Shown here piece by piece: positions 1,965-23,429 of a DNA stretch of 32,000 bases (position 1 is its first letter; each line of letters begins with the position of its first letter). Below the pieces are notes generated by a model that did no database searches, had not been told where the DNA came from, and worked only from the letters and a program-made list of their open reading frames with translations. The stretch is taken from contig NJBF01000015.1 of the NCBI GenBank assembly GCA_003144275.1, positions 1 through 32,000 of the forward strand. Reading direction: 5' to 3'. The translations under genes and the position numbers were made by a program. The stretch is from Candidatus Heimdallarchaeota archaeon B3_Heim (lineage in GTDB: Archaea > Asgardarchaeota > Heimdallarchaeia > Hodarchaeales > Hodarchaeaceae).

Positions 1965-3197
1965 TTATTCTGGAGCATAATTCTTGGCCATTTCAGCACG
2001 CGAAATGACAATTCTTTGTACTTCATTAGTACCTTCATAAATAGGGGTGATACGGGCATCGCGATAATAACGTTCTACATCGTATTCTTTGATATAGCCA
2101 TAACCGCCATGCATCTGAATAGCCTCGTTCGTCACCTGTTGAGAAATTTCCGAGCCATATAACTTCGCAATACTTGCGTATTCAGCAAAATCTAGATTAT
2201 TATCTTTCATACGAGCGGCAATGAGATAGGCGATACGTGCGGTATGAATTTTAGTAAAAAGATCCGCCATCTTAAATTGAGTTACTTGAAAACTCTCAAT
2301 TGAACGACCAAACTGTTTTCGTGATTTGACATAGTTTACAGCCTTCCGATAAGCAGCGTCAGCGATACCAACGCCTTGTGCGCCAATACCTATCCTAGCA
2401 GCTGATAATTCATACAAAACAACACTAAAACCTCTTCCAAGTTCCCCAAGTACATTCACTTTAGGGATCGTTACATCTTGAAGAGTGATTTCCCCAGTTG
2501 CGTTTCCATGTAATCCTAATTTCTCTTCAATCCGCGATACTTTAAAACCTGGATTATTTTTCGTATCGAGAATAAAAGCTGTAAGCCCCTTTGATTTTTT
2601 CTCTGGGTCAGTAGATCCTAAGAATAGAAACGTATCAGCAATACCTGAATTGGAAATAAAGTTCTTAGAACCATTTACAAGGTAATGATCTCCATTATCA
2701 ACAACTTTTGTCTTCAAAGACCCAAGATCTGATCCAGAACTAGGTTCAGTAAAAAGAAGTCCACCAAATATTTCCCCGCGAGCAAGTTTGGGTAAATATT
2801 GTTGTTTGGCTTCCTCTGTACCAAAATGTTCAATAACATCCGATGAAGAATTCTGGAGTCCGAACAATAATGAGGTACTCGCATCTGCACGAGAAAACCT
2901 TTCATAACATGCATTAACTAGAGCAAATGAGAGGCCGACACCTTCATATTTTTCAGGAATTGCTAAACCCATTAAATCGCTTTCTCCAAGTTTTTTTAAA
3001 ATCTTATACGCTTGTGGAGGATAAGTGACTTTACCTGTCTTTGGATCATGGATACAACCGATTTCATCCATTTCTTGTGCATGTGGTTCAATTTCTTTTT
3101 TGCAGATTTCGTCCACAAGATCCAAAATCATTTCATTTTCTTCAGACTCTTCTTTCGTGAATCCTAAGGTCAATAATACTTGATATAAATCCTTCAT
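1965..3197 (-). CDS. Acyl-CoA dehydrogenase
   Basis: FTEPSSGSD, NGSKNFISN, QMHGGYGY and IYEGTNEVQR (catalytic Glu) motifs typical of ACADs. Confidence 0.93.
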   Translation of the reverse strand: MKDLYQVLLTLGFTKEESEENEMILDLVDEICKKEIEPHAQEMDEIGCIHDPKTGKVTYPPQAYKILKKLGESDLMGLAIPEKYEGVGLSFALVNACYERFSRADASTSLLFGLQNSSSDVIEHFGTEEAKQQYLPKLARGEIFGGLLFTEPSSGSDLGSLKTKVVDNGDHYLVNGSKNFISNSGIADTFLFLGSTDPEKKSKGLTAFILDTKNNPGFKVSRIEEKLGLHGNATGEITLQDVTIPKVNVLGELGRGFSVVLYELSAARIGIGAQGVGIADAAYRKAVNYVKSRKQFGRSIESFQVTQFKMADLFTKIHTARIAYLIAARMKDNNLDFAEYASIAKLYGSEISQQVTNEAIQMHGGYGYIKEYDVERYYRDARITPIYEGTNEVQRIVISRAEMAKNYAPE

Positions 3198-11572: not shown

Positions 11573-11630
11573 TAATCTACAAATTTCTTGTACAGACAGA
11601 AAATGATTTATCAAGTGAGGTGGAATATTG

Positions 11631-11780
11631 ATGGGTACTGTACTCGGACCCTGTAAAAAATGTGGAACCTTAATGACTCGTCACCATACATCAGGATTAT
11701 GTTTTGAATGTCGACAACGCTTCAGTAAAACTAACCAAATCAACGATCCTGATCTACCAGAACCACTAAAATATGAATAA
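11631..11780 (+). CDS. 49-aa Cys4 zinc-finger micro-protein; not in the ORF track
   Basis: MGTVLGPCKKCGTLMTRHHTSGLCFECRQRFSKTNQINDPDLPEPLKYE* with CxxC-x12-CxxC; strong SD GAGGTG at 11617-11622; TAA 11778-11780. Confidence 0.75.
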   Translation: MGTVLGPCKKCGTLMTRHHTSGLCFECRQRFSKTNQINDPDLPEPLKYE

Positions 11781-11869
11781 CCATATCTAATGGCTTAATT
11801 ATTCCTAGATATCGCTGTTTCTACTTATTCATATCCCTGTACGCTTTTTTTCAACGAAGGGGGGAAGAG

Positions 11870-11878
11870 AAAGCTTAA
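11870..11878 (+). promoter_or_regulatory. BRE/TATA-like element upstream of the RuBisCO-like gene
   Basis: AAAGCTTAA preceded by a purine run, ~70 nt before ATG 11947; the same motif occurs before other genes in the window. Confidence 0.4.
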
Positions 11879-11946
11879 CACAAGGTTTATCATAGGACCC
11901 TAGAGTATTGGATTCAAACAACCTGACTGATAAATGAGGAGAAAAC

Positions 11947-13284
11947 ATGCCTAAAGATATTTTTGCACAGTATGATCCAATAGAAGAAGCCCTCCAAGAG
12001 GGAATCAATCCAGATGAGTATATAATAGGAACTTATATGATTCAGCTTGGCCCTCGAATGGATCCATGGTATATGGGTCGTGCAGCAGCTTGTGAACAGA
12101 GTACAGGAACATGGGTGCCTGTCCCTGCCAATACACCTGAATTACGATCAAAGTACGGAGCGAAAGTGATTGGAATTTATGAAGTACCCTCTCACGAATT
12201 TGAAATTCCTAAAGGAGTCGAAGAACGGAATTTTATTTATCAAATTGCGTTTCCGACAATTAATCAGACCGATCAAATAGGCCTTATGCTTACAGCTACC
12301 ATAGGAAATATCTCTATGGGAGGCAAACTCAAAATGCTCGATTTGAGATTCCCTCAAAAATGGCTTAAAAATTTTCAAGGGCCCAAGTTTGGAATAGAAG
12401 GTATCAGAAAACTCCTCAAGGTTCCCGATAGACCACTCTTGAACAACATGATTAAACCGTGTAGTGGATGGACTCCTAAAGTAGGGGCACAACTATTCTA
12501 TGCAGCAGCGAAGGGAGGCTGTGATATTGTTAAAGATGATGAACTGATTGCAGACATGGATTACAATAGAGTGGCAGACAGGGTACCTTTGATGATGGAA
12601 GCTGTAGACAAAGTTAGAAATGAAATTGGTGAAGAAACCCTGTATACTGTGAATATCACAGACAAAATCATAAAATTAAAAGAAAATGCTTTAGCTGTGC
12701 AGGATGCAGGTGGAAATGCACTTATGCTAAACTATCTCGTGGTTGGACTTCCCGCTCTACGTATGCTAGCAGAAGATCCAGAAATTAAGCTTCCAATTTT
12801 GGGGCACATGGACATGGCAGGAGTTTATTATGAATCACCAATCTCGGGTATTTCGTCATTCTTGATTATGGGTAAACTAGCAAGACTTGCTGGTGCTGAC
12901 ATTGTTGTATATCCAGCCCCCTACGGCAAAGCTCCCTATCTTAAAGAAAGGTATATGGAAATTGCTAAAGCTCATCGTTATCGAATGCATAATCTTAAAC
13001 CTACACTACCTATGCCATCTGGAGGAATCACACCTGGGATGGTTTTACGTGTTATGCAGGATCTTGGCAATGATATGATGATTGGTTCTGGTGGTGGTAT
13101 TCATGCCCATCCTGATGGACCGATTGCTGGAGCAAAAGCATTTAGACAGGCTATCGACATTGGTATGAAGGATATGAAAGAAGCCTCTGAAGATTTCGAG
13201 GATTATGTCGAAGATCATGAGGAAGAATATCCGGAACTTGCCAAAGCTATGGAAACTTGGGGAGTATCCGATACTCGCCTGTAG
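11947..13284 (+). CDS. RuBisCO-like protein (form IV, RLP)
   Basis: EQSTGTW, MIKP, GCDIVKDDE, LGH, PYGK, PSGG and GSGGGIHAHP motifs; lacks the R295/H298/H327 equivalents needed by carboxylating RuBisCO. Confidence 0.9.
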   Translation: MPKDIFAQYDPIEEALQEGINPDEYIIGTYMIQLGPRMDPWYMGRAAACEQSTGTWVPVPANTPELRSKYGAKVIGIYEVPSHEFEIPKGVEERNFIYQIAFPTINQTDQIGLMLTATIGNISMGGKLKMLDLRFPQKWLKNFQGPKFGIEGIRKLLKVPDRPLLNNMIKPCSGWTPKVGAQLFYAAAKGGCDIVKDDELIADMDYNRVADRVPLMMEAVDKVRNEIGEETLYTVNITDKIIKLKENALAVQDAGGNALMLNYLVVGLPALRMLAEDPEIKLPILGHMDMAGVYYESPISGISSFLIMGKLARLAGADIVVYPAPYGKAPYLKERYMEIAKAHRYRMHNLKPTLPMPSGGITPGMVLRVMQDLGNDMMIGSGGGIHAHPDGPIAGAKAFRQAIDIGMKDMKEASEDFEDYVEDHEEEYPELAKAMETWGVSDTRL

Positions 13285-13656: not shown

Positions 13657-15336
13657 TCACGTATGCCCTACTTCTTCTGCTTTTAGTTTCTTCTTATCTA
13701 ATTTCATTACGCGAGTTAGAGGTAGGAAATCACGAATTTCAATTTGTTTAGGGACGGCATAAGGAGGGAGAGTCTCTTTACAGAAATCTAAAATATCATC
13801 CGATGTAGTAGTTTCTTTAAATTCATCCCTTAAAATCACAAATGCTTTTACTCTTTCGCTTCCGGGTCGATCGGGATCAGGTAAACCAATTACTCCAGCC
13901 ATCCGCACTGCAGGATGGGTATGAAGAGTGTCATCAATGACTCGTGAATATACTTTCATTCCCGACACATTGATCATATCTTTAATTCTATCGACTATTT
14001 GAAAATAACCATCCTCATCCATCGTTCCGATATCCCCAGTAGCAAGCCAGCCATCCTTTTGCAATCCTTTTCCTTTCTCTGGCCAATAACCTAACATAAC
14101 CTGCGGGCCCCGAATCCATACCTCTCCCTCTTCTCCGAAAGGAACTTCTACTCTTGTATCAGGATCAACAAGTTTAACTTCAGTATCTGGAGCGGGAACT
14201 CCAATTCCTTGTTTGGCTTTAGTCATAAATCTTGTGACTTTGGAGATCGCTGAAAGGTTGATATGTGTTAGTGGGCTAGTTTCCGTCATTCCATAGCCTT
14301 CGGTCATAGGAACTCCCGTTTTTTTCTCAAATTTTCCTGCTACATCTGAAGGTAAAGCTGCAGCTCCTGAGATGTAAATAATAGGCATTTTTTTGATATC
14401 TTTCTGCAAAAGTTCCATATAGTGTGTGGGAACTGCATACACAGAGAACGGACGTACTTTTTTGATCAATTCAACAATACGATCTATATCTCTTGCATCG
14501 ACTAATATCATACGCAGACCCCACGAAATGGAAGCATGAATAGCCCAGTGTCCATATTGATGAAATATGGGAACACAGATTAATGTAGCAGATTTTCCTT
14601 TTACTCCTCGTTCAAGAGGGTGTAAAAACCATTGTAACGATTGGATCACATTAGTAGTAATATTATAATGGGATAACATTGTCCCCTTCGGGATTCCGGT
14701 TGTTCCACCTGTAAAAGGAAGTAACGCTAGGTCTTCTTTGGCATTAATGGCAACATCTGGAGGATTCGGTTCATATTTCTCAATTAAGTCTTCCAACTTG
14801 AGAGCATCGGGGTCTCCTACAATTTCGGGTTGCTGATAATCAGGAAACAAAGGTATTGGTGTATAAATTAAGTTTTTAATGGATAATTCGTTTCTAATTT
14901 CCTCTATCCGTTCAAGGCGGCGATAAGAGCAAATAATAGTCGTTGTATTAGATTCATTCAATTCATACAGAAGATCTGGTGCTTTATGAAGAATTGACAA
15001 TGGAACATGAACTGCACCAAGTCGCATCAAAGCGTAATCTACAATTATGAATTCTGGACAAGTAGGGAGAATAGTTGCTACTTTGTCATTTTTTTTGACT
15101 CCTAAATCTGCAAATGCAGTAGCTAATTTATCGACCTTTAGTTTTAGTTCAGAATACGTCAATTTTTGCTCTAAATACTCACATGCAATATTATCAGGAT
15201 ATTCGGAGGCTGCATCTTCAAGAAATTTATATACTGAAATCTCTGGATAGGGGGCCATAGTTTTTGGTAGTTTCATTGGCCCTACGAAGTAACTTTTCAA
15301 CCATGGTTTGTCTGCATAAGTAGTCACGCTATTCAC
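13657..15336 (-). CDS. AMP-forming acyl-CoA synthetase (long-chain fatty-acid-CoA ligase family)
   Basis: FTGGTTGIPKG, EGYGMTETSP, TGDIG, DRIKDMINVSG and MKLDKK adenylation motifs; GTG start with SD GAGG. Confidence 0.9.
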   Translation of the reverse strand: MNSVTTYADKPWLKSYFVGPMKLPKTMAPYPEISVYKFLEDAASEYPDNIACEYLEQKLTYSELKLKVDKLATAFADLGVKKNDKVATILPTCPEFIIVDYALMRLGAVHVPLSILHKAPDLLYELNESNTTTIICSYRRLERIEEIRNELSIKNLIYTPIPLFPDYQQPEIVGDPDALKLEDLIEKYEPNPPDVAINAKEDLALLPFTGGTTGIPKGTMLSHYNITTNVIQSLQWFLHPLERGVKGKSATLICVPIFHQYGHWAIHASISWGLRMILVDARDIDRIVELIKKVRPFSVYAVPTHYMELLQKDIKKMPIIYISGAAALPSDVAGKFEKKTGVPMTEGYGMTETSPLTHINLSAISKVTRFMTKAKQGIGVPAPDTEVKLVDPDTRVEVPFGEEGEVWIRGPQVMLGYWPEKGKGLQKDGWLATGDIGTMDEDGYFQIVDRIKDMINVSGMKVYSRVIDDTLHTHPAVRMAGVIGLPDPDRPGSERVKAFVILRDEFKETTTSDDILDFCKETLPPYAVPKQIEIRDFLPLTRVMKLDKKKLKAEEVGHT

Positions 15337-17449: not shown

Positions 17450-17875
17450 ATGGTTGTTTATGGTTCAGAAGAATGGGTAGAAGCACTCGTAGTTAAGATT
17501 AATGAAAGTGAAGCTTATGGAAAAGCTGCAAAGAATTGGGAAGGGGACTTCATTTTCAAAACGATTCCTGACGGTACAGGTACTTTCACAGAAGAAACAA
17601 ATATCTATTGTGATTTATGGCATGGAAAGTGTCGTGCTGCATATTTAGTCGCTCCAGATAAACCCGCTCCCGAAAAAGTTGAATTTATTTACGCGGGAAA
17701 ATATGGAAATTGGTTAAAGTTATTCGATGGTAAGATAGGACCATTAAAAGGAATCATGCAAAGAAAATTTGAAGTAAAGTGCTCAGCAAAATCAATGGCT
17801 AAATTAATGCGAGCTCTAAAAGCAGCCCAAGAGCTGGTTAAATGTACTAGGATTGAGAATGTAGAATATCCATAA
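17450..17875 (+). CDS. SCP2 sterol/lipid-binding domain protein
   Basis: YGSEEW...YGKAAKNWEGDF...DLWHGKC...W.KLFDGKIGPLKGIMQRKFEV pattern of prokaryotic stand-alone SCP2 proteins. Confidence 0.75.
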   Translation: MVVYGSEEWVEALVVKINESEAYGKAAKNWEGDFIFKTIPDGTGTFTEETNIYCDLWHGKCRAAYLVAPDKPAPEKVEFIYAGKYGNWLKLFDGKIGPLKGIMQRKFEVKCSAKSMAKLMRALKAAQELVKCTRIENVEYP

Positions 17876-20441: not shown

Positions 20442-21815
20442 ATGGAAAATCAGAAACGCTTATTTAAAGATGAAGAAATTCTTGAGTGGATTACAACCCT
20501 AACGGAAGAAGATCTCAGAACAGTACATAAAAAAAGTCTGGTACCCTTCTATGATCAGGTATTTGTAGAAGGAAAAGGAGTTTATTTAAAGGATCACTCA
20601 GGAAAAGAATTTCTTGATTGTACCAGCCAGGCTTGGACATCTAATATCGGTTTTGCAAATCCTGACGTTGCATATGGAGTATCAGAACAAGTTAAACGAC
20701 TTACTCATGTACGGTACGGATTTCCTACCATACCCCGGATTAATTTTATTCACAAACTTGCTTCCATTACCCCTAAAGGCCTGACAAAAATTGCAGTAAA
20801 TGCCATGGGAGGAGGCGCGGCAATAGAAGCTGCTCTCAAACTCACAATGATAAATAAACCCGGTGCAGAGACTTTTTATTCCTATACTCGCGGGTATCAT
20901 GGAAGTTCTTTGGCAACAATGACTCTCGCTACACGATTTGCTGGAGTTACACGGTTTCGTCCATGGGGATTTGATCGGGTGTCAAAAATTCCTTTTCCCT
21001 ACTGTTATCGATGTCCTGTTGGTCAGGAGAATGAAAAATCCTGTAAACTGGAATGTCTTGAGATAGTAAAGCATCTCATTGAATATGGTTCTGTAGACAA
21101 AGTAGCAGGAATTCTCATGGAACCGATTCAAGGTCCAGGTGGACATATTCCTGCTCCTAAGCGTTATATGAAAGAACTAAGAAAATGGACCCAAGCTAAT
21201 GAAATATTTCTGATCTGGGATGAGTCACAGCTCTTTACTCGTATCGGTTATTGGTTCTCTTCAGAATTTTATGACGGGATTAAACCAGATATTACCTGTT
21301 TAACAAAAGCTGTCGGGGGTGGGCTTCCAATGGGTGTCACTATTGCTCGTGAAGATTTAAGTGGTTTTAATTCCGCAGAAGAACATTCTACATTTGGCGC
21401 TAACCCCCTTATGTTTGCCTCAGGGCTTGTATTTTTGAATTATATTGGAAGAGCAAACTTGTTGGAGAATACACGAGAGCAGGGAGCCTATATTACTAAA
21501 AAATTATATAGTTTACAAAAAGAATCAGAATATATTGGAGATATCAGGTGTCCAGGTTTAATGATAGGTATTGAACTGGTTTTGGATCGAGAAACCAAAG
21601 AACCAGCAAATGCTTTAGCGACGGATCTTATTGAAATTGCTAAGGATGAATATGGGGTCATCTTTGGCTTATCTGCCCCTATTTCGAGTGATTCAGGTTC
21701 TTTGTATCGTAATGTTGTAAAAATTAAACCTCCTCTAACAATTACACAAGAGGATTCAGATCATATAATGGATATATTTGAAAAAGCATTAGAAGAAGCT
21801 ATTGATTATTTATAG
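20442..21815 (+). CDS. Class III PLP-dependent aminotransferase-family enzyme
   Basis: GKGVYLKDHSGKEFLD, GYHGSS, ILMEPIQGPGG, WDESQ, DITCLTKAVGGGLPMG (PLP Lys), STFGANP, GLMIGIEL. Confidence 0.92.
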   Translation: MENQKRLFKDEEILEWITTLTEEDLRTVHKKSLVPFYDQVFVEGKGVYLKDHSGKEFLDCTSQAWTSNIGFANPDVAYGVSEQVKRLTHVRYGFPTIPRINFIHKLASITPKGLTKIAVNAMGGGAAIEAALKLTMINKPGAETFYSYTRGYHGSSLATMTLATRFAGVTRFRPWGFDRVSKIPFPYCYRCPVGQENEKSCKLECLEIVKHLIEYGSVDKVAGILMEPIQGPGGHIPAPKRYMKELRKWTQANEIFLIWDESQLFTRIGYWFSSEFYDGIKPDITCLTKAVGGGLPMGVTIAREDLSGFNSAEEHSTFGANPLMFASGLVFLNYIGRANLLENTREQGAYITKKLYSLQKESEYIGDIRCPGLMIGIELVLDRETKEPANALATDLIEIAKDEYGVIFGLSAPISSDSGSLYRNVVKIKPPLTITQEDSDHIMDIFEKALEEAIDYL

Positions 21816-21830
21816 AACTGTTGTGATTGA

Positions 21831-23429
21831 ATGGTTACAAAGAAGTTTCTAGCTTATGATCTTGGAACAACCAGCACAAAGGCTGTATTAATCTCAAACG
21901 ATATTGAATTCCTTGATTCATCAGTAATGGATTATCGGACAATTTTCCCCAAAGCAGGATATGCAGAGCATAATCCTGAAGACTGGTGGCATACTTTAGT
22001 AAGTACTACGCAGGAATTAATGAAAAAAACTGCCACAGATCCTTCTGAAATTAATGCTATTACATTTAGTTCCCAAATGCAAGGATGTCTTCCAGTTGAC
22101 AAAGATGGTACACCGTTAATGAACTGTATGATATGGTTGGACGGTCGAGGAGCCGAAATGATGTCCAAACTCTGGCCATGGCCAAGAGTAATGGGATATA
22201 ATCCCTATCGTTTATTTAGAAAGTTTTTAAAAATTACTGGAGGGTCACCTGGGTTAGCAGGGAAAGATATCATCCCTAAAATTCTGTGGCTGCAAAAAAA
22301 TAATCCCGACCTCCTTCAGAGGACTTTTAAGTTCTTAGATGTAAAAGATTATGTGATTTATTTGCTTACAGGAGTAATGGCCACCTCAACAGATCTTGCA
22401 TATATTTGGTGGTTGATGGACAGTCGGAAGCAAGAAGGGAAACCACGGAATGAATGGTCCCGATCTTTATGTAAAACATTCAAAATCGATATGGAAAAAC
22501 TCCCTGAGCTCCGAAAACCTACAGATATTATTGGTTCATTGTCAGAAAAGGCCGCGTTAGAGTTAGGTCTAGTAAAGGGTATACCTGTCGTAAATGGTGC
22601 TGGTGATATGACTACAGCAGCCATTGGTTCAGGTGCCGTCTTAGATGGAGAACTTCATTGCCAAATTGGGACATCTGGCTGGGTAGCTGGACATGTTTCC
22701 GAAAGAAAAGTAGATATTAGTCATTATACTGGTTGCACTGGTTCAGCTTTCGCTGATCAATTTTATTTAGTTACAGGACATCAGGAAATTGCTGGTTCAG
22801 CACTTGAATGGGTAAAAAATAATATTCTTTATTTTAAAGAGGAATTACAATCTCAAGAAAAGAAAGATGTTTATGAGATTTTTGATGAACTCGTTTCGGA
22901 TTGCCCACCAGGTGGAAAAGCAGCTGGAGGCACAAATTTATTATTTATGCCATGGCTTTATGGAGAAAGATGTCCGTTAGATGATGATCACGTTCGTGGA
23001 GGATTAATCAACCTTTCACTAGACCATGATAGACGCCATTTACTTAGAGCGGTGTTTGAAGGGGTGGCATTCAACGCTCGTTGGGCATTACATACAGTAG
23101 AAAAACTTTATTCTTCTGTAGAATGGCTTTCCATAATTGGAGGAGGAGCCAAATCCGAAGTTTGGTGTCAAATTTATGCTGATATTCTAAATAGAAAAAT
23201 TAAACGTGTTAAAAACCCACAAGAAGCCGGAGCATTAGGTTCCGCGTTAATTGCTAAGATGGCATTAGGAGAAATTCAAAGTTTGGATGAGATTAAACAG
23301 TGTTGTCACTACGACAAAGAATTTACCCCGAATCCTGAGTATCGTGAGCTGTATGATAATCTTTTTAAAGAATTTAAGAATTTATACAAACAAAATAAGA
23401 AATGGTTCAAGAGGATGAATAGCAAGTAG
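21831..23429 (+). CDS. FGGY-family carbohydrate kinase (xylulokinase-like)
   Basis: YDLGTTSTKA, EHNPEDWW, SSQMQG, WLDGR, GAGD, GTSG, PWLYGERCP, RAVFEGVA, IGGGAKSEVWCQIYAD. Confidence 0.92.
   Translation: MVTKKFLAYDLGTTSTKAVLISNDIEFLDSSVMDYRTIFPKAGYAEHNPEDWWHTLVSTTQELMKKTATDPSEINAITFSSQMQGCLPVDKDGTPLMNCMIWLDGRGAEMMSKLWPWPRVMGYNPYRLFRKFLKITGGSPGLAGKDIIPKILWLQKNNPDLLQRTFKFLDVKDYVIYLLTGVMATSTDLAYIWWLMDSRKQEGKPRNEWSRSLCKTFKIDMEKLPELRKPTDIIGSLSEKAALELGLVKGIPVVNGAGDMTTAAIGSGAVLDGELHCQIGTSGWVAGHVSERKVDISHYTGCTGSAFADQFYLVTGHQEIAGSALEWVKNNILYFKEELQSQEKKDVYEIFDELVSDCPPGGKAAGGTNLLFMPWLYGERCPLDDDHVRGGLINLSLDHDRRHLLRAVFEGVAFNARWALHTVEKLYSSVEWLSIIGGGAKSEVWCQIYADILNRKIKRVKNPQEAGALGSALIAKMALGEIQSLDEIKQCCHYDKEFTPNPEYRELYDNLFKEFKNLYKQNKKWFKRMNSK

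Follow-up and report, generated by a model that had tools for sequence, protein, structure and literature searches.

A putative form IV RuBisCO-like protein from a Heimdallarchaeota genome: a conserved, altered active site and a recurrent kinase partner

Contig NJBF01000015.1 of Candidatus Heimdallarchaeota archaeon B3_Heim (assembly GCA_003144275.1) begins with a stretch of 32,000 nucleotides, here called the window, that encodes a protein of the RuBisCO family at positions 11947-13284 of its plus strand. The open reading frame is intact and opens with an ATG, homologue alignments begin at residue 1-4 of the 445-amino-acid product (P0001), and the protein matches PF00016 (150.6 bits) and PF02788 (32.9 bits), giving it an N-terminal alpha/beta domain and a C-terminal TIM barrel. 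Its closest homologues carry the names Hod-, Heimdall- or Hermodarchaeota. RuBisCO-like proteins (RLPs) are a textbook example of the re-use of one active site for different enolate chemistry, and few of their clades have an assigned reaction. Profiles, alignment and a tree indicate that the protein is a form IV RLP, and that its clade, to which no function has been assigned, stands apart from both RLP clades known to function in methionine salvage.

We read the active site from a MAFFT alignment of the query protein with the form I CbbL of Cupriavidus necator (L004), the form III RuBisCO of the B3_Heim genome itself, Priestia megaterium MtnW (L003), the 3-oxo-isoapionate-4-phosphate decarboxylase OiaX (L005) and several members of the query's own clade. 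Positions are given in spinach numbering, placed on the alignment through invariant motifs; all codons lie on the plus strand. Near the N terminus, E60, T65 and W66 are retained as E50, T55 and W56 (codons 12094-12114) in all 73 clade members considered below, in a region that in RuBisCO binds the P1 phosphate and pairs with the loop-6 Lys and where MtnW has Gly and Ser. N123 is retained as N121 (12307-12309), a position held by Lys in MtnW (K98 of the Geobacillus protein). K175 is retained as K170, within the codons for I169-K170-P171-C172 (12451-12462; spinach T173, K175, P176 and K177), and the carbamate Lys and Mg2+ ligands K201, D203 and E204 are retained as K196, D198 and E199 in the motif K196-D197-D198-E199 (12532-12543). 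H294 is kept as H287, the loop-6 Lys K334 as K328, S379-G381 as S358-G359-G360 (13018-13026), where MtnW has Ala at 380, and G403/G404, the P1 phosphate backbone site, as G382-G383 (13090-13095).

The replaced positions are K177 (C172), R295 (M288), H298 (A291) and H327 (V321), joined by T173 (I169) and L335 (A329), and position 296, which is Ala in RuBisCO and MtnW, is Asp (D289) in the query clade. Most of these changes fall in two short stretches, one at 12805-12819 that encodes H287-M288-D289-M290-A291 (spinach H294, R295, A296, M297 and H298) and one at 12907-12933 that runs from V321 to K328-A329 (spinach H327 to K334-L335). Roughly 15 of the 19-21 or so classical active-site residues are kept, while the ribulose-1,5-bisphosphate (RuBP) binding set of bona fide RuBisCO (forms I-III) is incomplete, with C, M, A and V at 177, 295, 298 and 327. 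The half of the site that is kept here is the one with which RuBisCO binds its substrate at the C1 phosphate and, on Mg2+ beside the carbamate, at the C2 carbonyl and C3 hydroxyl; the half that is replaced held the C5 phosphate. A HMMER alignment to the solved Geobacillus MtnW (2oek) has the same register as the MAFFT alignment, with ‘fpspygsva’ of MtnW facing ‘PAPYGKAPY’ of the query and Geobacillus K98 facing N121. An initial annotation of this DNA, made by hand alignment, had listed E60, N123, K175, K201/D203/E204, H294, K334, S379-G381 and G403/G404 as kept and the residues at 177, 295, 298 and 327 as changed to Cys, Met, Ala and Val, and had taken the MtnW loop to have no K334. The alignments reproduced every one of these residues, and the point on MtnW was right as well, since PSPYGS of 2oek faces PAPYGK of the query; Asp296 and the changes of T173 to Ile and L335 to Ala did not feature in it.

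An exhaustive search of representatives clustered at 50% identity returned 1933 relatives on a continuum of identity from 56% down to 30%, and 22 active-site positions were typed in 114 sequences, 107 of which entered a maximum-likelihood tree. The query clade is monophyletic, with a Shimodaira-Hasegawa approximate likelihood-ratio (SH-aLRT) support of 86-93, and lies within a supergroup of support 97 that also holds the MtnW/YkrW clade (17 rows, SH-aLRT 99) and a clade of proteins like 3qfw (SH-aLRT 100). The query is nested in neither. The MtnW/YkrW clade is marked by G60, S/T65, K123, S334 and A380, with Lys at 123 in 16 of its 17 rows, and the 3qfw-like proteins are shorter (about 380 amino acids), with Arg 334, His 204, Pro 66 and a gap at 177; their nearest solved structure is 3qfw, probably Rhodopseudomonas palustris RLP1, a protein of the DeepYkr type. 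Several neighbouring uncharacterised clades keep E60, N123 and K334 together with other residues on the P2 side. Non-polar residues at 295, 298 and 327 are common to MtnW and most of the surrounding supergroup, and so the non-polar P2 side does not distinguish the query clade. Judging from the alignment, what sets it apart from the characterised clades is the combination of retained N-domain residues, loop-6 Lys, Gly380 and Asp296, and against MtnW the most discriminating positions are N123, E60, T65 and G380. The site keeps more of the carboxylase machinery than do MtnW or DeepYkr-type proteins.

The profile scores agree with this placement. The query falls below all NCBIfam cut-offs: its best matches are the MtnW models NF007095 (345 vs 409 bits) and TIGR03332 (289 vs 514), and it scores 238 vs 497 bits against the form III model TIGR03326 and 157 vs 700 against the OiaX model NF042437. 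Among solved structures, the MtnW-type proteins of Geobacillus, B. cereus, Alicyclobacillus and B. subtilis match best (E 3e-75 to 6e-67), followed by form III. An AlphaFold2 (AF2) model of the RLP has a predicted local distance difference test score (pLDDT) of 87, with its lowest confidence at residues 291-310, a clade-conserved polar loop (Y-x-S-P-x-S-G-x-S-S) that lies C-terminal to the former Arg295/His298 site. In a fold search this model matched RuBisCO and RLP structures about equally, at template modelling (TM) scores of 0.79-0.85; the search does not separate the RLP clades from one another or from form III.

The clade is large and widespread. One genome per species was scanned with clade-specific peptide patterns, which found at least 550 genome stretches that encode a relative; the best 80 loci were kept, and the clade statistics given here refer to 73 members from species genomes. 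The query's pattern of kept and replaced residues is fixed in these 73 species genomes, which come from 10 or more phyla of anaerobes, archaeal and bacterial: Asgard archaea, the relatives of eukaryotes, together with Bathyarchaeia, Hadarchaeales, Archaeoglobaceae, Chloroflexota, Actinomycetota, Caldisericota and others. Of the 22 typed sites, 16 do not vary among the members, whereas only 16.6% of all columns are invariant (n=73; hypergeometric p ~3e-9), and the active-site pattern is therefore under selection rather than in decay. The invariant residues include K334, E60, N123, T65, K175 and H294, with the carbamate/Mg2+ motif KDDE, K170 and H287 present in 73/73, and Asp296 is likewise found in every member. 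The replaced positions are hardly more variable, with Cys177 in 72/73, Met295 in 70/73, Ala298 in 68/73 and Val327 in 73/73. Such an active site, in effect frozen, with its replaced residues as strictly conserved as the kept ones, bears what we read as the mark of a working, specialised site, and the RLP itself is most likely active and strongly conserved. The modal signature (E60 T65 W66 N123 K175 C177 KDE H294 M295 D296 A298 V327 K334) is carried by 48 of the 73 members, the query included. Every Arg, His and Lys that is invariant in the clade also occurs in form III, which leaves no obvious substitute for the lost P2 ligands. A clade member with the same signature is encoded in an Archaeoglobus sp. 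metagenome-assembled genome (MAG; L047), where it adjoins the dehydrogenase-like gene described below, and members occur in 4 of the 31 Archaeoglobaceae genomes sampled. The name ‘IV-Aful’, reportedly given to the lineage of the Archaeoglobus fulgidus RLP by Tabita et al. in 2007, may apply to this clade.

The B3_Heim genome has exactly two genes of the RuBisCO family. Besides the query RLP there is a complete form III enzyme of 436 amino acids on contig C31:61160-65029 (L001:1480-2790, minus strand), in which all catalytic residues are intact (ESSIGTW, GNIFG, KPKIG, KDDEN, HAHRAMH, HIGTVVGKL, ASGGLH and GGGIHGHP). Because the genome has this separate and complete form III, the query RLP is not needed for RuBP carboxylation. 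Sixty-one genomes of the class were sampled for orthologues. The RLP has one, at 84-95% identity, in 17 of the 21 genomes of the same genus, and the FGGY kinase discussed next has one, at 68-98% identity, in 20 of these 21; both are absent from the other 12 genera of the sample. In 11 of the 21 same-genus genomes the clade has a further paralogue, at 52-56% identity to the query, and 9 of these 11 carry the 84-95% orthologue too (examples of the paralogue are G056:C32:1796-3079, G046:C1:3630112-3631395 and G029:C53:118574-119854). The B3_Heim genome, which is 94% complete, has one clade member only.

For the gene neighbourhoods, open reading frames were called, clustered and mapped around the RLP in the 73 loci. 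An FGGY kinase (cluster c1) lies within 10 kb of the RLP in 44/73 loci, nearly always directly upstream, with a median gap of 15 bp and on the same strand in 98% of cases; of the 29 bacterial loci flanked by 3 kb or more on each side, 28 have it. Its nearest model is XylB, at 301-345 bits and thus below the 380-bit cut-off. A gene resembling saccharopine or carboxynorspermidine dehydrogenases is found in 23 loci and a class-III aminotransferase (cluster c3) in 20, and the two never share a locus (Fisher p ~1e-4, for relatives that are not independent). This exclusion suggests two alternative ways to carry out one amine-to-carbonyl step, or its reverse; it is seen across loci L014-L086, for example at L037:11447-12664 and L015:2091-3518. 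Major facilitator superfamily or ATP-binding cassette transporters and TetR or ArsR regulators stand beside several of the operons, which gives them a catabolic look. PDB searches with the partner proteins returned no match at E<=1e-50 for the aminotransferase, carboxy(nor)spermidine and saccharopine dehydrogenases at 66-82 bits for the dehydrogenase-like protein, and gluconate and glycerol kinases at 144-170 bits for the kinase, so that by sequence none of the partners seems to have a close functional homologue among solved structures. The three-gene module of amine enzyme, kinase and RLP is conserved, and as such it offers a direct experimental route to the substrate.

In the window, two module genes have orthologues on the strand of the RLP, 7-9 kb downstream and not adjacent to it. 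They are a class-III (omega-type) aminotransferase at 20442-21815 (+), orthologous to the cluster c3 gene that adjoins the kinase and RLP genes in 20 other genomes, and an FGGY kinase at 21831-23429 (+), orthologous to the cluster c1 gene and likewise nearest to XylB below the cut-off. The module is thus dispersed in the B3_Heim genome, as archaeal module genes mostly are. A second part of it lies on contig C82, where a gap of 16 bp separates the dehydrogenase-like gene (L091:8620-9834, +) from a second FGGY kinase downstream of it (L091:9851-11437, +). This dehydrogenase-like gene is 50% identical to the bacterial operon partner and the kinase is 43% identical to that of the window; an IS605 OrfB/TnpB gene (L091:6684-7964, -) lies just upstream of the pair, and no second RLP to accompany it was found in the B3_Heim genome.

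We consider it probable that three things hold jointly: that this is a distinct clade, that its substrate is the monophosphate product of the partner kinase, and that its chemistry is enolisation. Our confidence in any particular product is much lower. The amine enzyme would convert an amino-alcohol or amino-polyol to an alpha-hydroxy-ketone, and the FGGY kinase would phosphorylate the primary hydroxyl to give a 1-phospho-2-keto-3-hydroxy compound, in effect the head group of ribulose bisphosphate without its second phosphate. The RLP would bind this head group in the manner of RuBisCO, with the carbamate abstracting the C3 proton to form a Mg2+-stabilised 2,3-enediolate. The enediolate would then most likely be reprotonated, which would make the enzyme an isomerase or epimerase that brings the carbon into central metabolism. 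The retained K334/E60/N123 trio, otherwise seen in enzymes that act on a carboxyl group (RuBisCO, OiaX), may leave room for chemistry on such a group. The FGGY kinase and amine-enzyme partners fit a compound with a greasy tail no better than a ketose phosphate that is polyol-like or derived from an amino-alcohol.

These results also bear on what the initial annotation had made of the altered site, namely a subfamily and reaction other than those of Bacillus MtnW and a mono-phosphorylated substrate with a hydrophobic end. The subfamily is indeed another one, and the reaction almost certainly differs too: the query scores below both MtnW cut-offs, the phylogeny, a check that the annotation had suggested, puts it outside the MtnW clade, it has Asn at the position of the MtnW Lys, and its clade has no methionine-salvage neighbours in 74 loci. 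As to the substrate, a single phosphate is well supported, but a hydrophobic distal end is not established: residues 295, 298 and 327 are non-polar in MtnW and most of the supergroup as well, Asp296 is invariant, the adjacent polar loop is conserved (at low AF2 confidence), and the partners are a kinase and an amine enzyme.

Several observations count against the picture of a kinase-fed enolising enzyme. The literature searched yields no biochemical or functional study of any clade member, and substrate, phosphorylation site and product are all inferred. Of 13 archaeal loci flanked by 3 kb or more on each side, 9 had no partner gene within 10 kb, and as a rule the partner genes do not adjoin the RLP in Asgard genomes; the link in B3_Heim therefore rests on orthology to the bacterial operons and on the short distance of 7-9 kb. 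Xylulokinase models come nearest to the kinase, and xylulokinase places its phosphate far from the keto group rather than beside it, so a different binding mode would be needed. Finally, the amine enzyme may act before the kinase or after the RLP.

Two alternatives would keep the protein within methionine salvage, and both are tested by its phylogeny and gene context. One is that it isomerises 5-methylthioribulose-1-phosphate (MTRu-1-P), or 5-deoxyribulose-1-phosphate, and so disposes of methylthioadenosine (MTA) or 5'-deoxyadenosine, by-products of S-adenosylmethionine. DeepYkr, found in Rhodospirillum rubrum and as RLP1 in R. palustris, is a 5-methylthioribulose-1-phosphate 1,3-isomerase (PMC5893883). 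With the 3qfw-like clade as a stand-in, DeepYkr belongs to the same supergroup as the query and likewise keeps E60 and N123; its substrate is a ketose monophosphate whose tail bears no phosphate, the query's active site would suit a 1-phospho-2-keto-3-hydroxy pentulose with such a tail, and the predicted first step of the query, C3 proton abstraction to an enediolate, would be similar chemistry. The B3_Heim genome moreover encodes an MtnA above cut-off (346 vs 279 bits) and an MTA-phosphorylase-like protein (235 bits, below the 275-bit cut-off) and no MtnB above cut-off, and MTRu-1-P could therefore form and need a sink. However, the query lies outside the 3qfw-like clade, differing from its signature in length and at 334, 204, 66 and 177 and in its gene partners, homologues of MtnA, MtnK, MtnX or cupins are absent from all 74 loci, and MTA salvage has no use for an FGGY kinase and an amine enzyme. 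The genome's MtnA gene is itself isolated on contig C63 (L092:1422-2483, +) among unrelated genes, for an EF-hand protein, a KaiC-like ATPase, a beta-CASP nuclease and a nitrilase-family hydrolase. Gene context and phylogeny thus argue against methionine salvage as the principal role, despite MtnA and the MTA-phosphorylase-like gene, and an isomerase of the DeepYkr kind appears unlikely. The other alternative, 2,3-diketo-5-methylthiopentyl-1-phosphate enolase (MtnW), follows the automatic Joint Genome Institute (JGI) annotation of several homologues, and we regard it as very unlikely. MtnW/YkrW proteins (Geobacillus kaustophilus 2oek/2oem, Bacillus subtilis 2zvi, B. cereus 3fk4) do provide the best NCBIfam and solved-structure matches, the latter at E 3e-75, and have in common with the query the carbamate/Mg2+ site, K175, H294, S379 and the non-polar side at the second-phosphate site. 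Yet identity to MtnW is 37% by tblastn and 33-34% in Foldseek alignments, both equivalog cut-offs are missed, the query is outside the MtnW clade, and it has E, T, N, K and G where MtnW has G60, S/T65, K123, S334 and A380. Imker et al. in 2007 reportedly assigned to the MtnW Lys at 123 (Geobacillus K98) the role of catalytic base that takes a proton from C1 of the diketone; with Asn in place of this Lys, the query RLP cannot work in the same way. Whereas P. megaterium mtnW sits among mtnA/K/X/B genes, the query clade never does, nor does mtnD occur beside it.

The remaining alternatives lean on the carboxylase-like part of the site. It is conceivable, though again unlikely, that the protein adds CO2 to the enediolate of a monophosphate ketose, or handles a beta-keto acid, and then splits the product. 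The residues K334, E60, N123, T65, K175 and H294, all invariant in the clade, serve CO2 addition in RuBisCO, and among the typed references K334 is found only in true RuBisCOs and in RLPs of the OiaX and Natronosalvus type, having been lost in MtnW and the 3qfw-like proteins. OiaX, annotated as a beta-keto-acid decarboxylase, and related NonPhoto-type RLPs adjoin four-carbon acid-sugar kinases and act straight after a dedicated kinase in a catabolic operon. Genes for acyl-CoA dehydrogenase, thiolase and acyl-CoA ligase also occur beside the module (L023, L065) or nearby (L032, L050, L056 and the window). On the other hand, H327, proposed to act in the hydration step of RuBisCO, is lost together with K177, and since many sister RLP clades without known function also keep K334, E60 and N123, retention of this trio may be ancestral rather than functional. 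OiaX itself is a distant clade that keeps R295 and differs in signature at 66, 296, 298 and 380, and its kinase is of the DUF1537 type where the query's is FGGY. The beta-oxidation neighbours are about as frequent as expected (acyl-CoA dehydrogenase in 7/73 loci) and mostly come from close relatives. A more specific and decidedly improbable version has the amine enzyme and FGGY kinase turn an amino-diol, such as a small amino-polyol or a sphingoid-type base, into a compound that joins the ribulose-bisphosphate head group to a tail without phosphate. With its intact CO2-addition residues (K334, E60, N123, K175 and H294), the RLP would split this compound without oxygen to 3-phosphoglycerate and a carboxylic acid that would feed the acyl-CoA ligase and beta-oxidation. 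A residual or specialised RuBP carboxylase is extremely unlikely. The query has the fold, length, N-domain residues and loop-6 Lys of form III RuBisCO, as in its own paralogue and Thermococcus kodakarensis (1geh/3a12), and about 15 catalytic residues are common to the two, but identity is about 32%, the form III enzyme keeps K177, R295, H298 and H327 and binds a bisphosphate, and in the query clade K177 and the three distal-phosphate ligands are replaced in 68-73 of 73 sequences. The low score against the form III model and the complete form III gene already in the genome speak against it as well. A 2023 review does mention in passing that active-site residues are better retained in Asgard form IV proteins than in the rest of form IV (PMC10809010), which fits such a reading as far as the kept residues go. 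That this retention is already known tempers the value of our finding. Once solved, the reaction would extend the known RLP chemistry, would probably reveal a catabolic pathway not yet described in sediment microbes, and would show what residues were required in RuBisCO before its substrate became a bisphosphate.

Some further features of the neighbourhoods deserve mention. Acyl-CoA dehydrogenase, thiolase, MaoC hydratase, acyl-CoA ligase and SCP2 genes occur near the kinase-RLP pair in several lineages (L023, L065, L032, L050 and L056), adjoining the module on the same strand in L023 and L065, and the window has genes of the beta-oxidation type at 1965-3197 (-), 13657-15336 (-) and 17450-17875 (+). 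Given their near-chance frequency, mostly in close relatives, we take them as a hint of a lipid substrate at most, and set that candidate aside. The search of the 74 loci for methionine-salvage genes gave one weak class II aldolase match. A class II aldolase gene (PF00596; L043:5556-6206, +) lies in an Actinomycetota MAG a few genes upstream of a dehydrogenase-kinase-RLP operon, in that lineage only; this aldolase could cleave a ketose-1-phosphate made by the RLP. Directly 5' of the RLP gene in the window lies a non-coding gap of 374 bp (11573-11946). An Rfam scan of the whole window, gap included, matched no family, and one of 7 bacterial operons revealed no riboswitch that would name a ligand. 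The window also encodes an archaeal histone doublet and an Arf-type GTPase.

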